Source: a virus. From it: a stretch of 64,000 nucleotides of DNA. Below the pieces are notes generated by a model that was given only the letters and a program-made list of their open reading frames with translations, had not been told where the DNA came from and did not search any database. Each line of letters starts with the position of its first letter. Within the stretch, counting starts at the first letter, position 1. The DNA lies in IMG/VR virus record IMGVR_UViG_3300025913_000021, positions 64,001-128,000 of that record; one strand, written 5' to 3'. The position numbers were made by a program, and so were the translations under genes. This document shows, in pieces, positions 9,996 to 44,984 of the stretch.

Positions 9996-10136
9996 GGAGC
10001 TGCTCAAGCCGACCCGGTGGATGCGGCTGCGTCACGCCGTCCATCTGTGGTGGAACAAGTCGCGCTTCAACAGCGGCTACGACCCGTTCATCAGCGACTG
10101 TCTCTGCTGCTGCTCACGATGTGAGGAGATCTACGA

Positions 10137-10568
10137 ATGACCGACCAGTGCAGCAGCGGCGCAGTGCGCTCACGCAAGCGCGGCTCACCGCTGCCCCACG
10201 CAGGCAAGCCCTGCGCGAACTGCCCCTTCCGCAAGGACTCCCCGGCCGGTGAGTTCGCCACCGAGCGCTTCGACACGCTGCGGGCCACCTCGCGTGACCC
10301 GCGCACCGGCCAGGACGCTCTGCCGGGCTCGCCGATCTTCGCCTGCCACAAGAGCCTTGACGGCCGCGAGATCGCCTGTGCCGGGTGGCTGGCGGTCGAG
10401 GGCTACGGGAACCTCGACGTACGGCTGGCGCTCGCGTACGGCGAGCTGGAGCCCGAGGCGCTGGCACCGCAGCCGGACTGGCCGGACCTGCATGAGAGCT
10501 ACAACGAGGTGGCCGTGAAGAACGGCTGCGAGGACTGGGGTGACAAGCATGCCCGCCGCAAGTCCTGA
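10137..10568 (+). CDS. Cys-rich protein (DUF6283-like), paralog 2
   Basis: PCANCPFRKD...FACHKS...ACAGWL. Confidence 0.7.
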   Translation: MTDQCSSGAVRSRKRGSPLPHAGKPCANCPFRKDSPAGEFATERFDTLRATSRDPRTGQDALPGSPIFACHKSLDGREIACAGWLAVEGYGNLDVRLALAYGELEPEALAPQPDWPDLHESYNEVAVKNGCEDWGDKHARRKS

Positions 10569-23795: not shown

Positions 23796-24297
23796 TCGAC
23801 CCGAACATCACGACGGCCGACGGCAAGCCGGTCGCCTTCCACGACTTCAAGCCCGAGCAGTTCCCGTTCCGCGTCCAGTTCATCGACAACGACACCGAGG
23901 AACTGCTGCACGAGGTCATCGTGCGCGGGATCAGCCACATGGAGGTCCCCGGCTTCGCACCGCGTCGGGTGCGGGTCGAGATCACCTACCCGAACGGGTT
24001 GCAGTACGTCGAGGGACCACCAGGATCGGGACTGAGCGAAATGCGCCAGGTCCCACCGCCGCGCCTGTGAGCTATCGCGACACCGAGTGCGATGCGTGCG
24101 GCAAGCCGTGGGACATCCACCTGATCATGGGCTGTGTGCACGAGCACTCCGGTCACGTGCGGTTCTGTCGAGAGCACCGCTCTCGGTTGGTCGCCACTGC
24201 CGATCAGTACCTGTGCTGCACCCCCTGCATCAACGATCACCCGTGCCGCACGCACGTCGTGCGCGTCATTGAAGATCGGTCCCAGGCCGCGTGACCC

Positions 24298-24325
24298 TTG
24301 CGCTGTTCGGCTGCGCGTCTATATT
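24298..24325 (+). promoter_or_regulatory. putative housekeeping-type promoter for the sigma gene (leaderless)
   Basis: TTGCGC-N16-TATATT, with ATG 24333 seven nt downstream and no SD; the spacer contains TGTTCGG. Confidence 0.5.
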
Positions 24326-24332
24326 CCGTGTT

Positions 24333-25112
24333 ATGGCGGTGGGAAAGCATCAGCTAACGGACGGTGAACTCGACGAGCAGTGGGCCCTCCTCAAGGCCGG
24401 AGGACCACGCGCTTCGACCGCCAGGGACCGTCTCGTGCTGCACTGGCGTCCGTTCGTCTGCTCGATCGCCAACCACATCGGCACCCGACTCCCGGCCCAC
24501 GTGGACAACGAGGACCTGATCAGCTACGGGATGATCGGGCTCCTGGACGCCATCGAGAAGTTCGACCCCGGCCGTGGCCTCCGCTTCAAGACCTACGCCG
24601 GGAAACGGATCAGCGGCCAAATCTACGACGAGCTGCGCAAGCTCGACTGGGTTCCGCGCTCGGTGCACAGCCAGGTCAAGGAGGTCACCGAGACGGTGAT
24701 CGACCTGGAGCGCAGGCTCCAGCGTCCCGTCTCCGATGCCGAGGTGGCCAAGGCTGCCGGACTGAGCCGCGAACAGGTCGCTGACGCCCGCAGCGAGCAG
24801 TCCTACATCAGCGTCATGGCGCTGGACGCCCTGCTGGACAACAACGTCGGGGACGAGACCCTCTCGCTGGCCAGCCAGCTCTACGACCGCACGCAGTCAC
24901 CCGACCAGGACTTCGAGGTCGAGGGCATCAAGGCTCTGATCGCCGGGGCTATGGCCAACCTGGGTGAGCGCGAGGCGCTGGTGCTGGCGCTGTACTACAT
25001 CGAGGGGCTGACGCTCTCCGACATCGGTGGGCTGCTCGGCGTCACTGAGTCTCGCGTGTGCCAGATGCATACCCGCGCGATGGTCGCAGTCCGCGAACGT
25101 CTCGCCGCCTGA
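24333..25112 (+). CDS. FliA/WhiG-family (sigma-28) RNA polymerase sigma factor
   Basis: LPAHVD.EDLISYGMIGLLDAIEKFDP.RG..FKTYA..RI.G.I.DELRKLDWVPRSV; region 4 LYYIEGLTLSDIG.LLGVTESRVCQMH. Confidence 0.93.
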   Translation: MAVGKHQLTDGELDEQWALLKAGGPRASTARDRLVLHWRPFVCSIANHIGTRLPAHVDNEDLISYGMIGLLDAIEKFDPGRGLRFKTYAGKRISGQIYDELRKLDWVPRSVHSQVKEVTETVIDLERRLQRPVSDAEVAKAAGLSREQVADARSEQSYISVMALDALLDNNVGDETLSLASQLYDRTQSPDQDFEVEGIKALIAGAMANLGEREALVLALYYIEGLTLSDIGGLLGVTESRVCQMHTRAMVAVRERLAA

Positions 25113-25682: not shown

Positions 25683-25931
25683 CGGCCGTTGCCCCTTCGC
25701 GTCTGACGAGCTAATGTTCGGCTTGTGATAAGTCGCTAACCTGAACCCCAGGTGGTGCCGCGCTGAATGCCGCCGCACCCACACGCATCAGTACCCGCAG
25801 GATCGCAACCGTATCGGTGAGCGCGCCTGGTGCTACGTGATCAGCGAGGAACCCGAGACCCCCGATGAGTGGTCGGCGTTCCGAGATCAGGTCTACCGAG
25901 TCGGCTGTCGAGGCCCGCGCGAGCGTGCAGC

Positions 25932-26231
25932 ATGAGCGAGCCGACCGAGGTCGAGAAGCTCCAGCGCGAGATCGACTCACTGCGCGACCAGCTCGCCGAC
26001 GCCAACGCCAGAGTGCAAACGCTGAGGTGGCAGAACCAAGCACTGGAATCGGTTCACCTCTCGCCCGAGCAGAAGGCACGCTCGCACCAGAACGCCGAGG
26101 TCTACTACTGGATCGCCAAGTGCCAGCGGCAGCGACGGGCGATCAACCACATCCAGCGCAAGGGTTGGTACCCACCGGAGTACGTGATCCGCGAGGAGGA
26201 GACTCCGTGGGAGCTGGATCAGACCGCGTAG
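25932..26231 (+). CDS. coiled-coil hypothetical protein
   Basis: EVEKLQREIDSLRDQL; internal YVIREEETP. Confidence 0.55.
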   Translation: MSEPTEVEKLQREIDSLRDQLADANARVQTLRWQNQALESVHLSPEQKARSHQNAEVYYWIAKCQRQRRAINHIQRKGWYPPEYVIREEETPWELDQTA

Positions 26232-27218: not shown

Positions 27219-27238
27219 CGAGAGCATACCGAACATCG

Positions 27239-27311
27239 TCCGGGTGGAGGGACTCGAACCCCCGATCCCTTGGTCCCAAACCAAGTGGCCTAGCCGCTGG
27301 CCTACACCCGG
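27239..27311 (-). tRNA. tRNA-Pro(TGG)
   Basis: Acceptor CCGGGTG/CACCCGG, anticodon arm CTTGG-TTTGGGA-CCAAG, T loop GTTCGAGT; no encoded CCA. Confidence 0.92.
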
Positions 27312-27327
27312 GTGCGGGTTGCGATTG

Positions 27328-27400
27328 CAGGGGCGGTAGGACTCGAACCTACGGATGCCGGGTTTGGAAGCCGGTGCTCTTGCCGCTGAGCTACACCCCC
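27328..27400 (-). tRNA. tRNA-Trp(CCA)
   Basis: GGGGGTG-TAGCTCAG D arm, anticodon loop TTCCAAA, T arm GTAGG-TTCGAGT-CCTAC; G73; no encoded CCA. Confidence 0.88.
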
Positions 27401-27464: not shown

Positions 27465-27941
27465 TCATGACGGAGAGGCTAGCTGGTCGTCATCGAGGAC
27501 ATCAAGCGATTTCCGAACACCGCACTCGCATCCTGGAGCGAGGCACTGGCCTCGGTGATGGCGGGCCCGAGCATGTGGGCAGCCGCAGGGTTCCGGCATG
27601 GAAAGCAACGTCCGTCCGATTCCCTGCATCGGCTCGGCCTCGACGTGCCCATGTCGCTCGATGGCCAGGCCGGTGGTGCCTGCACCCTCTGGACTCAGCA
27701 GGAAGTAGAGGATCTCCTGGGCGCGCTGCTTCGGAATCTGGTAGCTGTCGTGCACGTAGTCGTGATGCCGACGGCACAGCGTGATCAGGTTCTCGGGCAC
27801 GTCGTGCGCATAGCCGCGCCGGTAGGTGATGTGGTGCACGTCGTAGGGCGGCTGGTTGGTCGCCCCGCACCACCGGCAGCGGTAGTTGTCCCGCTCGAAG
27901 ATCGCGAGCTTGAGCTTCTTCGGCAGGCCCGTGTAGGTCAC
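27465..27941 (-). CDS. HNH endonuclease
   Basis: FERDNYRCRWCG...VHHI...ENLITLCRRHH. Confidence 0.88.
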   Translation of the reverse strand: MTYTGLPKKLKLAIFERDNYRCRWCGATNQPPYDVHHITYRRGYAHDVPENLITLCRRHHDYVHDSYQIPKQRAQEILYFLLSPEGAGTTGLAIERHGHVEAEPMQGIGRTLLSMPEPCGCPHARARHHRGQCLAPGCECGVRKSLDVLDDDQLASPS

Positions 27942-42830: not shown

Positions 42831-42980
42831 GAATCCGAACATCGGACCCGTTTGTTCGAGTCGTTCGAGGCGGTGTCGAGGAAGTTAGCACCCTCTACAG
42901 AGGGTCACCAAGACCCAGTTTTTGCCCGTCTTTGTTCGGATTGGCAGGCTGTTCGGACGAACGTCCGTTCCTGCTCGTTC
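42831..42980. promoter_or_regulatory. control region for the replication operon, with clustered GTTCG/CCGAACA sites and an SOS-box-like GAAC-N4-GTTC
   Basis: CCGAACA 42835-42841; TGTTCGG 42933-42939 and 42950-42956; CGAACGTCCGTTC 42958-42970. Confidence 0.55.
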
Positions 42981-43769: not shown

Positions 43770-44585
43770 CTATCCCGTCCCCGAATCCGCTGCCGACGCC
43801 ACGGGTCGCGGCTTGTCGATCAGCGGGACTAGCACTGCCAGGAAGAACACCGCTGCCAGCAACGATGCGATGTCAGTCCACAGGAACAGCTTCCCGCTTC
43901 CGGGCCCAATGTGATAGGCCCCACCGGCTATTTCGATGGCCTGGGCAAGGCGGCGGAACGCCATCGTGACGAACACGAGCCCGAGACTGACGCCAAGTAC
44001 CGACCACTCCCGGGTGCGCCGATGCACCCGAAGTTGATAACTCAGCCATATAGCGCTCAACATCAAGTAGAGCCCGGTCAAGATCAGGTTATAGCTGGAG
44101 TCGAAGTGCCACCAGCGAAAGTGCGTATGTCTGAACCGAGCTACGTCCACGGTTCGCATTATGAATGCCCCGATGTAAGCCCCGAGTGCAAGAACGACTC
44201 CAAGGAGCCACGCGGGGGTGGTTCTCACGATCCTCTGAGGCAAACTCCGGGCAAGTCGGACACGCTCCCACCCGAAGATCAGTAGTGGCGGGAAGCACAC
44301 GATCAACGAACCGATGTCCAGCGCGCGAATTCCGCGCGGGCCGGTCAGGTGCATGTTGAGCGTGTAGACACCGTGAACGATCGCGTACAACCCCGAGGTG
44401 AGCGATACCGTCACCATGCCTAGGCCAAAAACCGCCGCCCGTCCTTTTCGCTGTCGCAAATACGGCAGCGCTTCGTAGGCGAAAAAGATGCCGAGGATGA
44501 CGAAGTTCAATAAGCCGAGAATGATCTGCGTCCACCCCCAGAAGTGACTCGCGCTCGTCGGCGTATTCAGCACCGGCCAGCTCAT
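43770..44585 (-). CDS. multi-pass membrane protein with atypical codon usage
   Basis: About 7 hydrophobic segments; visibly more A/T-ending codons than its neighbours. Confidence 0.65.
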   Translation of the reverse strand: MSWPVLNTPTSASHFWGWTQIILGLLNFVILGIFFAYEALPYLRQRKGRAAVFGLGMVTVSLTSGLYAIVHGVYTLNMHLTGPRGIRALDIGSLIVCFPPLLIFGWERVRLARSLPQRIVRTTPAWLLGVVLALGAYIGAFIMRTVDVARFRHTHFRWWHFDSSYNLILTGLYLMLSAIWLSYQLRVHRRTREWSVLGVSLGLVFVTMAFRRLAQAIEIAGGAYHIGPGSGKLFLWTDIASLLAAVFFLAVLVPLIDKPRPVASAADSGTG

Positions 44586-44893
44586 TCGTCGTCCTTCCCT
44601 GCCGACGCACCCATTTGCCGCATGGCCTCGGCGATGATGCTCTTGGTCGCAGCTCGGCCCAGGATCGCGAAGTCGTCGTCGCTGTCCGAGTTCTTCGTCA
44701 GGTCTCGTCCGGTGATCTTCGTAGCCAGCGCACCGACCGCCGCCGAAGCGATGGCGACCAACGGCTGCGCGTCGATTTTCACGACCGCCAGGACCACGAT
44801 GCCGACGATGCAGACCATCGCCGTAGCACCGAGGAACGTCAGGATCAGGCGGTCGTTACTCCCTTCCTCCTGGTGCTGCTGCTTCCGCGCCAT
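44582..44893 (-). CDS. two-TM membrane protein (holin-like)
   Basis: Two hydrophobic helices and a charged C-terminus. Confidence 0.5.
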   Translation of the reverse strand: MARKQQHQEEGSNDRLILTFLGATAMVCIVGIVVLAVVKIDAQPLVAIASAAVGALATKITGRDLTKNSDSDDDFAILGRAATKSIIAEAMRQMGASAGKDDE

Positions 44894-44984
44894 TGCCCTC
44901 GACTCCTCTGTTGCCCGTTCCCGCACGGAAAAGGCGTCACTAGGCCATCGGTCCTTCGCGGCTACGGCTTCACCATGAAAGGGG

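Follow-up and report, generated by a model that had tools for sequence, protein, structure and literature searches.

The 64,000-nucleotide (nt) stretch of DNA analysed here (the window) comes from an uncultured soil phage and spans bases 64001-128000 of the 149,260-base IMG/VR virus record IMGVR_UViG_3300025913_000021, for which CheckV estimates 88% completeness. At window positions 24333..25112, on the plus strand, lies an intact gene for a sigma factor of the sigma-28 (FliA/WhiG) family, 259 amino acids (aa) plus the stop codon. All three residues through which Streptomyces WhiG contacts cyclic di-GMP (c-di-GMP) in its complex with the anti-sigma factor RsiG are replaced in this protein, and its promoter-reading segments resemble those of cellular WhiG proteins. 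The reading that we favour, with a probability of roughly 0.55, is that the gene encodes an RsiG-insensitive sigma factor whose origin lies on the WhiG2 side of the family and which serves late transcription of the phage.

The RsiG-(c-di-GMP)-WhiG system gates sporulation and other lifestyle switches across Actinomycetota and is, to our knowledge, the only described case of a second messenger arming an anti-sigma factor. A phage relative of WhiG in which that interface is eroded would amount to a ready-made separation-of-function allele that could be used to test which residues of WhiG the leash depends on. A further question it raises is whether phages override the c-di-GMP decisions of their hosts, in an actinobacterial parallel to what the sporulation sigma factors are in Bacillus phages. 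A leash-free phage lineage, if real, would represent a viral bypass of the c-di-GMP control of bacterial development; a sigma factor confined to late transcription would still be a new family branch in phage transcription systems. No isolated phage in a GenBank set of 50,697 records has a relative of this protein above 37% identity.

Replacement of the c-di-GMP contact segment

Passages of Gallagher et al. 2020 (PMC7005675) name K57, G61 and R62 as WhiG's contacts to c-di-GMP, and state that any side chain at G61 would clash. The contacts to RsiG given there are Pro26, Leu29, Leu32, Arg43, Leu50, His51 and Tyr58 in sigma-2 and Ile223, Thr232, Thr235, Leu236, Tyr239, Glu240 and Leu242 in sigma-4; contact residues are also named in a portion of the preprint by Denis et al. 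2026 (bioRxiv 10.64898/2026.01.14.699351). In the HMMER alignment of the phage sigma to S. venezuelae WhiG (6pfj_A), counted from residue 28 of the printed alignment, the segment FVCSIANHI (residues 41-49; 24453..24479, plus strand) lies over LVKYVAGRV (L55-V63) of WhiG. K57 is thereby replaced by C43, G61 by N47 and R62 by H48, with S44 at the position of Y58. The initial annotation, made from the letters alone, had already set these two segments against each other and named the Lys, Gly and Arg as c-di-GMP contacts. This assignment agrees with the published passages, and alignment to WhiG/FliA and to the RsiG-WhiG structure leaves none of the three residues in place.

Changes extend to the surface that binds RsiG itself, where about half of the conserved contact positions are replaced. 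In sigma-4, T235 has become A219 and Y239 has become I223, while L236 (L220), E240 (E224) and L242 (L226) are maintained, so that three of these five positions are kept; I223 of WhiG is a methionine in the phage protein.

Relatives, tree and pattern of conservation

The 20 closest relatives, retrieved from 5.8 billion proteins, are 85-49% identical to the phage sigma; K57 is absent from all of them and G61 is found in P0019 only. The K-G-R triad is present in 95 of the 99 further homologues (P0022-P0120), among the matches listed. It also predominates in cells: in 160 cellular loci (80 from metagenomes and 80 from species genomes, all Actinomycetota) we counted 121 proteins with K-G-R, 38 with K-S-R and one with T-G-R. 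IMG/VR loci with FliA/WhiG-like genes carry K-G-R in 2 of 37 cases.

A careful maximum likelihood tree of 66 rows was built with IQ-TREE. Its protein matches were the 21 top-ranked ones plus two hand-picked motif outliers, its cellular side consisted of 34 loci (28 drawn at random, six chosen by hand), and eight rows of great length or odd composition (L002, L009, L012, L014, L015, L173, L174 and L186) were left out. The phage sigma, P0002-P0021, P0025 and P0069 form a single 23-member clade with support 97/97. Thirty cellular rows of WhiG2 type, so labelled, like those of WhiG1 type, independently of the reference sequences of the Denis 2026 paper, form a separate clade (98/96) that excludes the phage sigma. 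The two clades are joined with support of 86/54. Candidate WhiG1 proteins (L205-L207), which are second paralogues of motile Actinomycetota, stand outside as a clade of their own (99/97). They are encoded between flagellin, FlgK and FlgN genes, an arrangement in agreement with the WhiG1 clade that Denis et al. 2026 describe; no flagellar genes were seen among the neighbours of the phage sigma gene. The 23-member clade is thus probably sister to cellular WhiG2, through a weak link, and distinct from flagellar WhiG1. Within it, the branch of P0019 and P0025, which reads VRYVAGKV at the contact segment, is the first to split, so that parsimony favours an ancestor that bore Y58 and G61 and an erosion that came later.

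Conservation across the clade is uneven. K57 is kept in none of the 23 members, G61 in two and R62 in 16, and the position of K57 is occupied by ten different residues. When the 129 columns conserved in cells are ranked by their entropy within the clade, K57 comes first, Y58 second and G61 eighth. Conservation across the 160 cellular proteins reaches 85% or more in 122 columns, and in 18 of these no more than 20% of the clade retains the cellular residue; these lost columns include 4 of the 8 contact columns (K57, Y58, I223 and T235) and 14 of the 114 others, a modest excess (Fisher one-sided p 0.016, Mann-Whitney p 0.04). The core-binding and promoter-reading parts, which are still of WhiG2 type, behave differently from this surface. 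In region 4.2 the phage sigma has GVTESRVCQMHTRAM and cellular proteins GVTESRVCQIHTKAV, the match to WhiG2 being complete except for a K to R change. The DELR..DWVPRSV segment is retained, save for an R to H change in the sub-clade of the phage sigma, and WhiG1 departs far more in these DNA-reading segments of the alignment. At the level of sequence, the pattern is one of released constraint on the anti-sigma surface with sigma function retained. By the same comparison, the phage sigma most likely derives from the RsiG-regulated WhiG2 side and not from the flagellar WhiG1 side.

None of the 197 loci fetched, among the matches listed, carries the set of seven residues that marks the clade (Q114, V115, A166, Q182, R248, M250 and V253). 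When 401 Actinomycetota genomes were drawn evenly, a tally that includes 13 genomes flagged as unpublished, the protein most similar to clade member P0012 was 57% identical to it, and 401 genomes of the class of G407 gave no match at an expectation value (E) of 1e-100.

Sigma-factor architecture

The list of open reading frames (ORFs) gives a longer frame for the gene, 24291..25112 on the plus strand, with a GTG start and 273 aa. Since the three nearest homologues open with MAVG.. or MGVG.., translation is likely to begin at the ATG at 24333 and to give a product of 259 aa, in agreement with the boundaries proposed in the initial annotation.

Pfam recognizes Sigma70_r2 at residues 34-106 (24432..24650, plus strand; the same span is PF04542 at genome positions 88432-88650) with 59.7 bits and Sigma70_r4 at residues 206-255 (24948..25097, plus strand) with 58.5 bits, both above cut-off; region 3 scores 19.1 and stays below its cut-off of 25.3. 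The helix-turn-helix segment of region 4 is the WhiG2-like one given above. Directly after region 2 comes the DWVPRSV segment, in which D105, W106, P108, R109, S110 and V111 are invariant in the alignment of relatives. The NCBIfam model FliA_WhiG (TIGR02479) is passed with 226.5 bits against a cut-off of 189.6, and the FliA model NF005413 with 207.2 against 201; the WhiG equivalog NF004935, at 253.3 bits, is missed by reference to its cut-off of 343. Regions 2 to 4 are present, there is no region 1.1, and the length lies within the range of about 240-280 aa that we looked for in the family.

The closest solved structure by sequence is 6pfj_A (HMMER, E 5.2e-53), to which the alignment runs end to end, residues 12-258 of 259 in the phage protein lying over 28-274 of 278 in WhiG. 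Together with the TIGR02479 score, this upholds the earlier description of a full-length sigma-28 that aligns well with WhiG. An AlphaFold2 model computed with 21 relatives is all-helical, with three domains and a mean predicted local distance difference test (pLDDT) score of 78.9; confidence exceeds 90 in region 2 and is low in the linker at 164-186. Foldseek, queried with this model, ranks a B. subtilis RPSD-RPOB (SigD) model first, WhiG (6pfj and 6pfv) at ranks 2-4, and other sigma-28 proteins thereafter. No second sigma gene scores above cut-off anywhere in the genome. Judged from these profile and fold matches, the product is most likely a working sigma factor of group 3, belonging to the FliA/WhiG (sigma-28) family.

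Candidate promoters

A candidate promoter of the housekeeping type lies directly before the sigma gene (24298..24325, plus strand), with TTGCGC at 24298-24303, a 16-nt spacer and TATATT at 24320-24325. The TATATT ends 7 nt before the ATG at 24333 and is the only occurrence of this hexamer on either strand of the 149-kb genome; a consensus promoter scanner did not call the candidate. Such an arrangement could possibly give a leaderless mRNA.

For targets of the sigma factor we took the canonical WhiG/FliA promoter consensus from the Denis 2026 preprint, the family type being TAAA/T(A/C)AA-N15-16-GCCGATAA. Three candidate sites stand before genes of the minus strand. TCAA-N16-GCCGATGG lies 6 nt before the ATG of a 198-aa gene (genome 134474-135070), a ACCGATGG box precedes the gene for a 444-aa structural protein (genome 130991-132325), and a candidate sigma-28-type promoter, TGAA-N16-ACCGATGG (window 44945..44972), lies 18 nt before a 114-aa gene (44582-44926) upstream of the holin gene. 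We compared these places with those in a sister phage contig, G405, which is 89% identical in the 444-aa protein and roughly 75% identical over aligned DNA. The [AG]CCGATGG box is kept at all three orthologous places and the flanks diverge. The longest exact non-coding block common to both genomes is ACCGATGGCCCAAGAGAGGAGGCA. Within the 50 nt before starts (-50..-1), CCGATGG occurs four times against 1.01 expected in the present genome and four times against 0.36 in G405. The case for the [AG]CCGATGG boxes before virion and lysis genes as targets of the sigma factor is suggestive but small.

Phage late transcription, which had been put forward as one possible role of the protein, thus finds modest backing in a conserved box before three late genes; it finds none in canonical sigma-28 sites, which are not enriched.

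Phage context of the gene

That the sigma factor is phage-encoded, as first proposed, was confirmed by its position inside the 149,260-base virus record with phage genes on both flanks. PHROGs assignments on the two sides include ATP-dependent ligase, clamp loader, integrase, metallophosphoesterase, HNH, ribonucleotide reductase, primase/helicase, Sak4, exonuclease, holin and tail proteins; RusA, Ku and a head decoration protein are encoded elsewhere in the genome. In gene calls based on the G+C content of third codon positions (GC3), the sigma gene ends a 61-kb block of plus-strand genes, and the minus-strand block opposite holds replication, lysis and virion genes.

At least 120 bases at the opening of the record (1-120) are repeated at its end (149095-149260), and G405 is collinear with the record straight across this junction. 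On these grounds the record, although labelled linear and 88% complete, probably represents the whole genome, of about 149.1 kb and either circular or terminally redundant. GenBank phages gave no DNA match to it. Among 160 protein matches to the phage sigma in the 50,697 GenBank phage records the best is 36.6% identical, and Bacillus phage proteins annotated as 'sigma 28 subunit / SigF' match weakly, at 25-28% identity. Scans of viral contigs gave no match above 45% identity. The sister phages G405 and G406 are fragments that lack the sigma region.

No candidate for an RsiG or FlgM emerged from the genome. The RsiG motif E-x3-S-x2-R-x3-[QH]-x3-D, sought in six frames, has one match, a chance one, inside a 2432-aa tape-measure ORF; the FlgM family has no match in the phage, and the neighbours of the sigma gene include no anti-sigma family. 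Directly upstream of the sigma ORF lies a Cys/His-rich ORF of 75 aa (24067..24294, plus strand), whose stop overlaps the GTG of the sigma ORF (GTGA) and which has no Pfam or NCBIfam match. It is conceivable that its product is a zinc-binding partner of the sigma factor.

Proposed role and alternative explanations

According to the reading that we favour, the phage would bring the sigma factor into an actinobacterial host. There it would be made, probably from a leaderless promoter that serves the gene itself, the last one of a rightward block of early appearance. The protein would have kept core binding by region 2, the DWVPRSV segment and the recognition helix of region 4.2, and would have lost the surface of the RsiG/c-di-GMP clamp through K57C, Y58S, G61N, R62H, I223M, T235A and Y239I. 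Blind to the RsiG-(c-di-GMP) brake of the host, it would lead the host's RNA polymerase to promoters of a sigma-28-like kind. Foremost among the candidates for these are the [AG]CCGATGG boxes before virion and lysis genes on the opposite strand, which would make it a late-transcription sigma factor. In this scheme RsiG insensitivity, the sigma gene's own promoter, the target promoters and the timing are what we infer.

A number of observations weigh against this proposal. Canonical promoters (T[AC]AA-N16-GCCGA, CTCA-N16-17-GCCGA, TAAA-N15-17-CCGA and GCCGATA) were tried as the target class and rejected, showing no clear excess over 30 dinucleotide shuffles; T[AC]AA-N16-GCCGA, for example, has five matches against 1.7 in the shuffles, whose maximum is also five. 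The 11 T[AC]AA/CTCA sites listed with N15-17 fall mostly in coding DNA, enumeration of 4-mer and 5-mer dyads found nothing, promoter sites have no sense excess over the antisense control, and CCGATG before starts is not enriched (8 against 5.25 expected). The -35 regions that go with the three boxes diverge in G405, and the two phages compared are close kin. As to the interface, the argument from K57, G61 and R62 is built on a single Streptomyces crystal complex, in which, according to passages of PMC7005675, c-di-GMP is contacted mostly by RsiG and not by WhiG. Serine at the place of G61 in 38 of the 160 cellular proteins means that this glycine is not absolute, and six of the 17 listed contacts are retained in the phage sigma (L29, L50, H51, L236, E240 and L242), the mapping of the N-terminal ones being less certain. 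The erosion statistics are modest, the sequences are related, and the clade members were chosen by search rank plus the two motif outliers. Because the sister link to WhiG2 is weak, loss of the motif as opposed to its never having been gained is settled by parsimony alone. Finally, within the clade a phage context has been seen for the present protein only.

A minority possibility, compatible with a late-sigma role, is that the protein is a constitutive WhiG mimic which takes over the host by firing its WhiG regulon at any c-di-GMP level; depending on the host this regulon comprises sporulation regulators, type IV pili, motility, chemotaxis and c-di-GMP enzymes. With region 4.2 and the DWVPRSV segment nearly as in cellular WhiG2, host WhiG promoters should be readable, and canonical sigma-28 sites are few in the phage itself. 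Passages of PMC7005675 report that whiG overexpression or rsiG deletion leads to hypersporulation of S. venezuelae, parts of the preprint by Denis et al. describe diverse WhiG regulons, and the integrase suggests a temperate life in which altered host behaviour could pay. Against this, none of 401 sampled Actinomycetota genomes shows a related prophage, traced by the 444-aa structural protein; the CCGATGG box that is conserved in front of late genes speaks for phage targets, and the R to H change in PRSVR/H and the K to R change in region 4.2 may each shift specificity. The more sweeping proposition, that soil actinophages carry a dedicated WhiG2-derived sigma lineage freed of the RsiG/c-di-GMP leash, through which an infecting or resident phage could fire its late promoters as well as those of the host's developmental, pilus or motility regulon in any second-messenger state of the cell, is unlikely. 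We also consider it unlikely that the gene was simply inherited from an unsampled cellular lineage whose WhiG-like sigma factor was never, or is no longer, controlled by RsiG, in which case the missing motif would say nothing about escape. This explanation gains from the fact that the present protein is the one clade member shown to be phage-borne, from the natural absence of the triad in WhiG1 and many FliA proteins, and from the short branches of P0008-P0021, which are as in cellular genes; moreover, the metagenome and genome scans speak for the matches listed and not for cells at large. It has against it the clade signature unmatched in those fetched loci, the 57% ceiling for P0012 and the empty result in the class of G407, as well as the ten residues at K57, which look like released constraint, and a first-splitting branch that retains Y58 and G61.

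Continued control of the sigma factor is distinctly unlikely in our estimate. It might be exerted by RsiG via the six kept contacts, the more so as RsiG supplies most of the c-di-GMP contacts, or by the FlgM of the host, or else by some phage protein that went unrecognised, for instance the product of the Cys-rich ORF to which the sigma ORF is coupled. Yet G61N places a side chain where, by the published account quoted above, any side chain clashes; K57, Y58, R62, T235 and Y239 are all altered, and the phage gave no match to FlgM or to any anti-sigma family. It is very improbable that the gene does not belong to the phage and comes from host DNA at a prophage edge or from a chimeric contig. 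Such cases exist, as two IMG/VR contigs illustrate that carry a K-G-R WhiG at the contig end, one of them beside a serine recombinase. The present gene, in contrast, is located 88 kb from the start of a 149-kb record, has phage genes to either side, matches its neighbours in GC and GC3, and falls outside the cellular clade of the tree; the ends of the record overlap and the record is collinear with the sister phage.

Comparison with known systems

In phage sigma cascades such as that of Bacillus phage SPO1, a phage-encoded sigma factor moves the host's RNA polymerase away from the early promoters of the phage and on to the late ones. The protein described here differs from the SPO1 type in being a full-length, host-like sigma-28 and in having a small, weakly defined promoter set with three CCGATGG boxes.

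With S. venezuelae WhiG (PDB 6PFJ and 6PFV; PMC7005675) it shares the domain set, DW.PRSV and the region 4.2 helix TESRVCQMHT, at 39% identity in the fold match. It differs from that protein in having C, N and H at K57, G61 and R62, in the changes at Y58, I223, T235 and Y239, and in being phage-encoded, with no RsiG found in the phage by the RsiG-motif search. As far as parts of the Denis 2026 preprint describe WhiG2, the phage sigma falls together with it in the tree, WhiG1 being left outside, and resembles it in the DNA-reading segments, but forms its own clade. The c-di-GMP triad is absent from WhiG1 and phage sigma alike; WhiG1 has G at position 57, GVTQSRxSQLR in region 4.2 and flagellar neighbours, none of which the phage sigma shows.

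The initial annotation had drawn a parallel to the sporulation sigma factors of Bacillus phages. It is fair as an analogy and does not reach further: the proteins treated in portions of Schwartz et al. 2022 (mSphere, PMC9429907) are likewise phage-borne homologues of a host developmental sigma factor, but they belong to another branch of the family and to another host phylum, and those portions do not tell of a lost contact surface for an anti-sigma factor or a second messenger. The words WhiG, FliA and Actinobacteria are absent from the text of PMC9429907. Conversely, 'phage' is absent from the main text of a 2021 PNAS paper and of the Denis 2026 preprint, and 'bacteriophage' and 'phage-encoded' are absent from PMC7005675. 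Full-text literature searches, in which relevance was judged by title and abstract, found no paper on a phage WhiG among those listed.

Additional observations

Other viral contigs carry WhiG-like genes of differing kinds. On a 32,968-base IMG/VR contig (L004), positions 10001-10555 encode a WhiG-like sigma factor with regions 2 and 4 and with VVGIAHHM at the contact segment; its sigma-2 is 54% identical to P0013. We rejected it as a member of the 23-member clade, as it is a short sigma factor without region 3 from a phage of 51% GC. The IMG/VR contigs L005 and L006 each have a WhiG gene with intact K-G-R at the contig end, adjoining a large serine recombinase in L005 and lying among ORFans in L006. 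Either host flanks or phages whose WhiG is leashed could account for them.

Shine-Dalgarno sequences apart, no word before starts is more enriched than the 8-mer TCCGAACA (8 against 0.9 expected; TCCGAA, 10 against 1.8). Examples in the window are at 42940-42957, 38072 and 29636 on the minus strand and at 27512 on the plus strand, and the word often sits within palindromes, GGACG-N2-4-CGTCCGAA and TCCGAACATCGGA being examples. It was considered as a -10 box and rejected, having no -35 partner, occurring in both gene blocks and often being palindromic; it looks like an operator or hairpin serving both blocks. An identical string, GCCGACGAAGAAGGCATG, stands upstream of two genes of the virion region (genome 139172-139190 and 139984-140002) and may reflect a duplicated start region or a common translation signal.

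Adjacent genes for tRNA-Pro(tgg) and tRNA-Trp(cca) lie about 2 kb past the sigma gene, at window positions 27238-27311 and 27327-27400 on the minus strand, and a tRNA-Met gene is found elsewhere in the phage (L219, 5742-5816, minus strand). C-terminal ends of approximately the type YVIQEEP-stop are also visible, for example in the ORF at 25869-26231.

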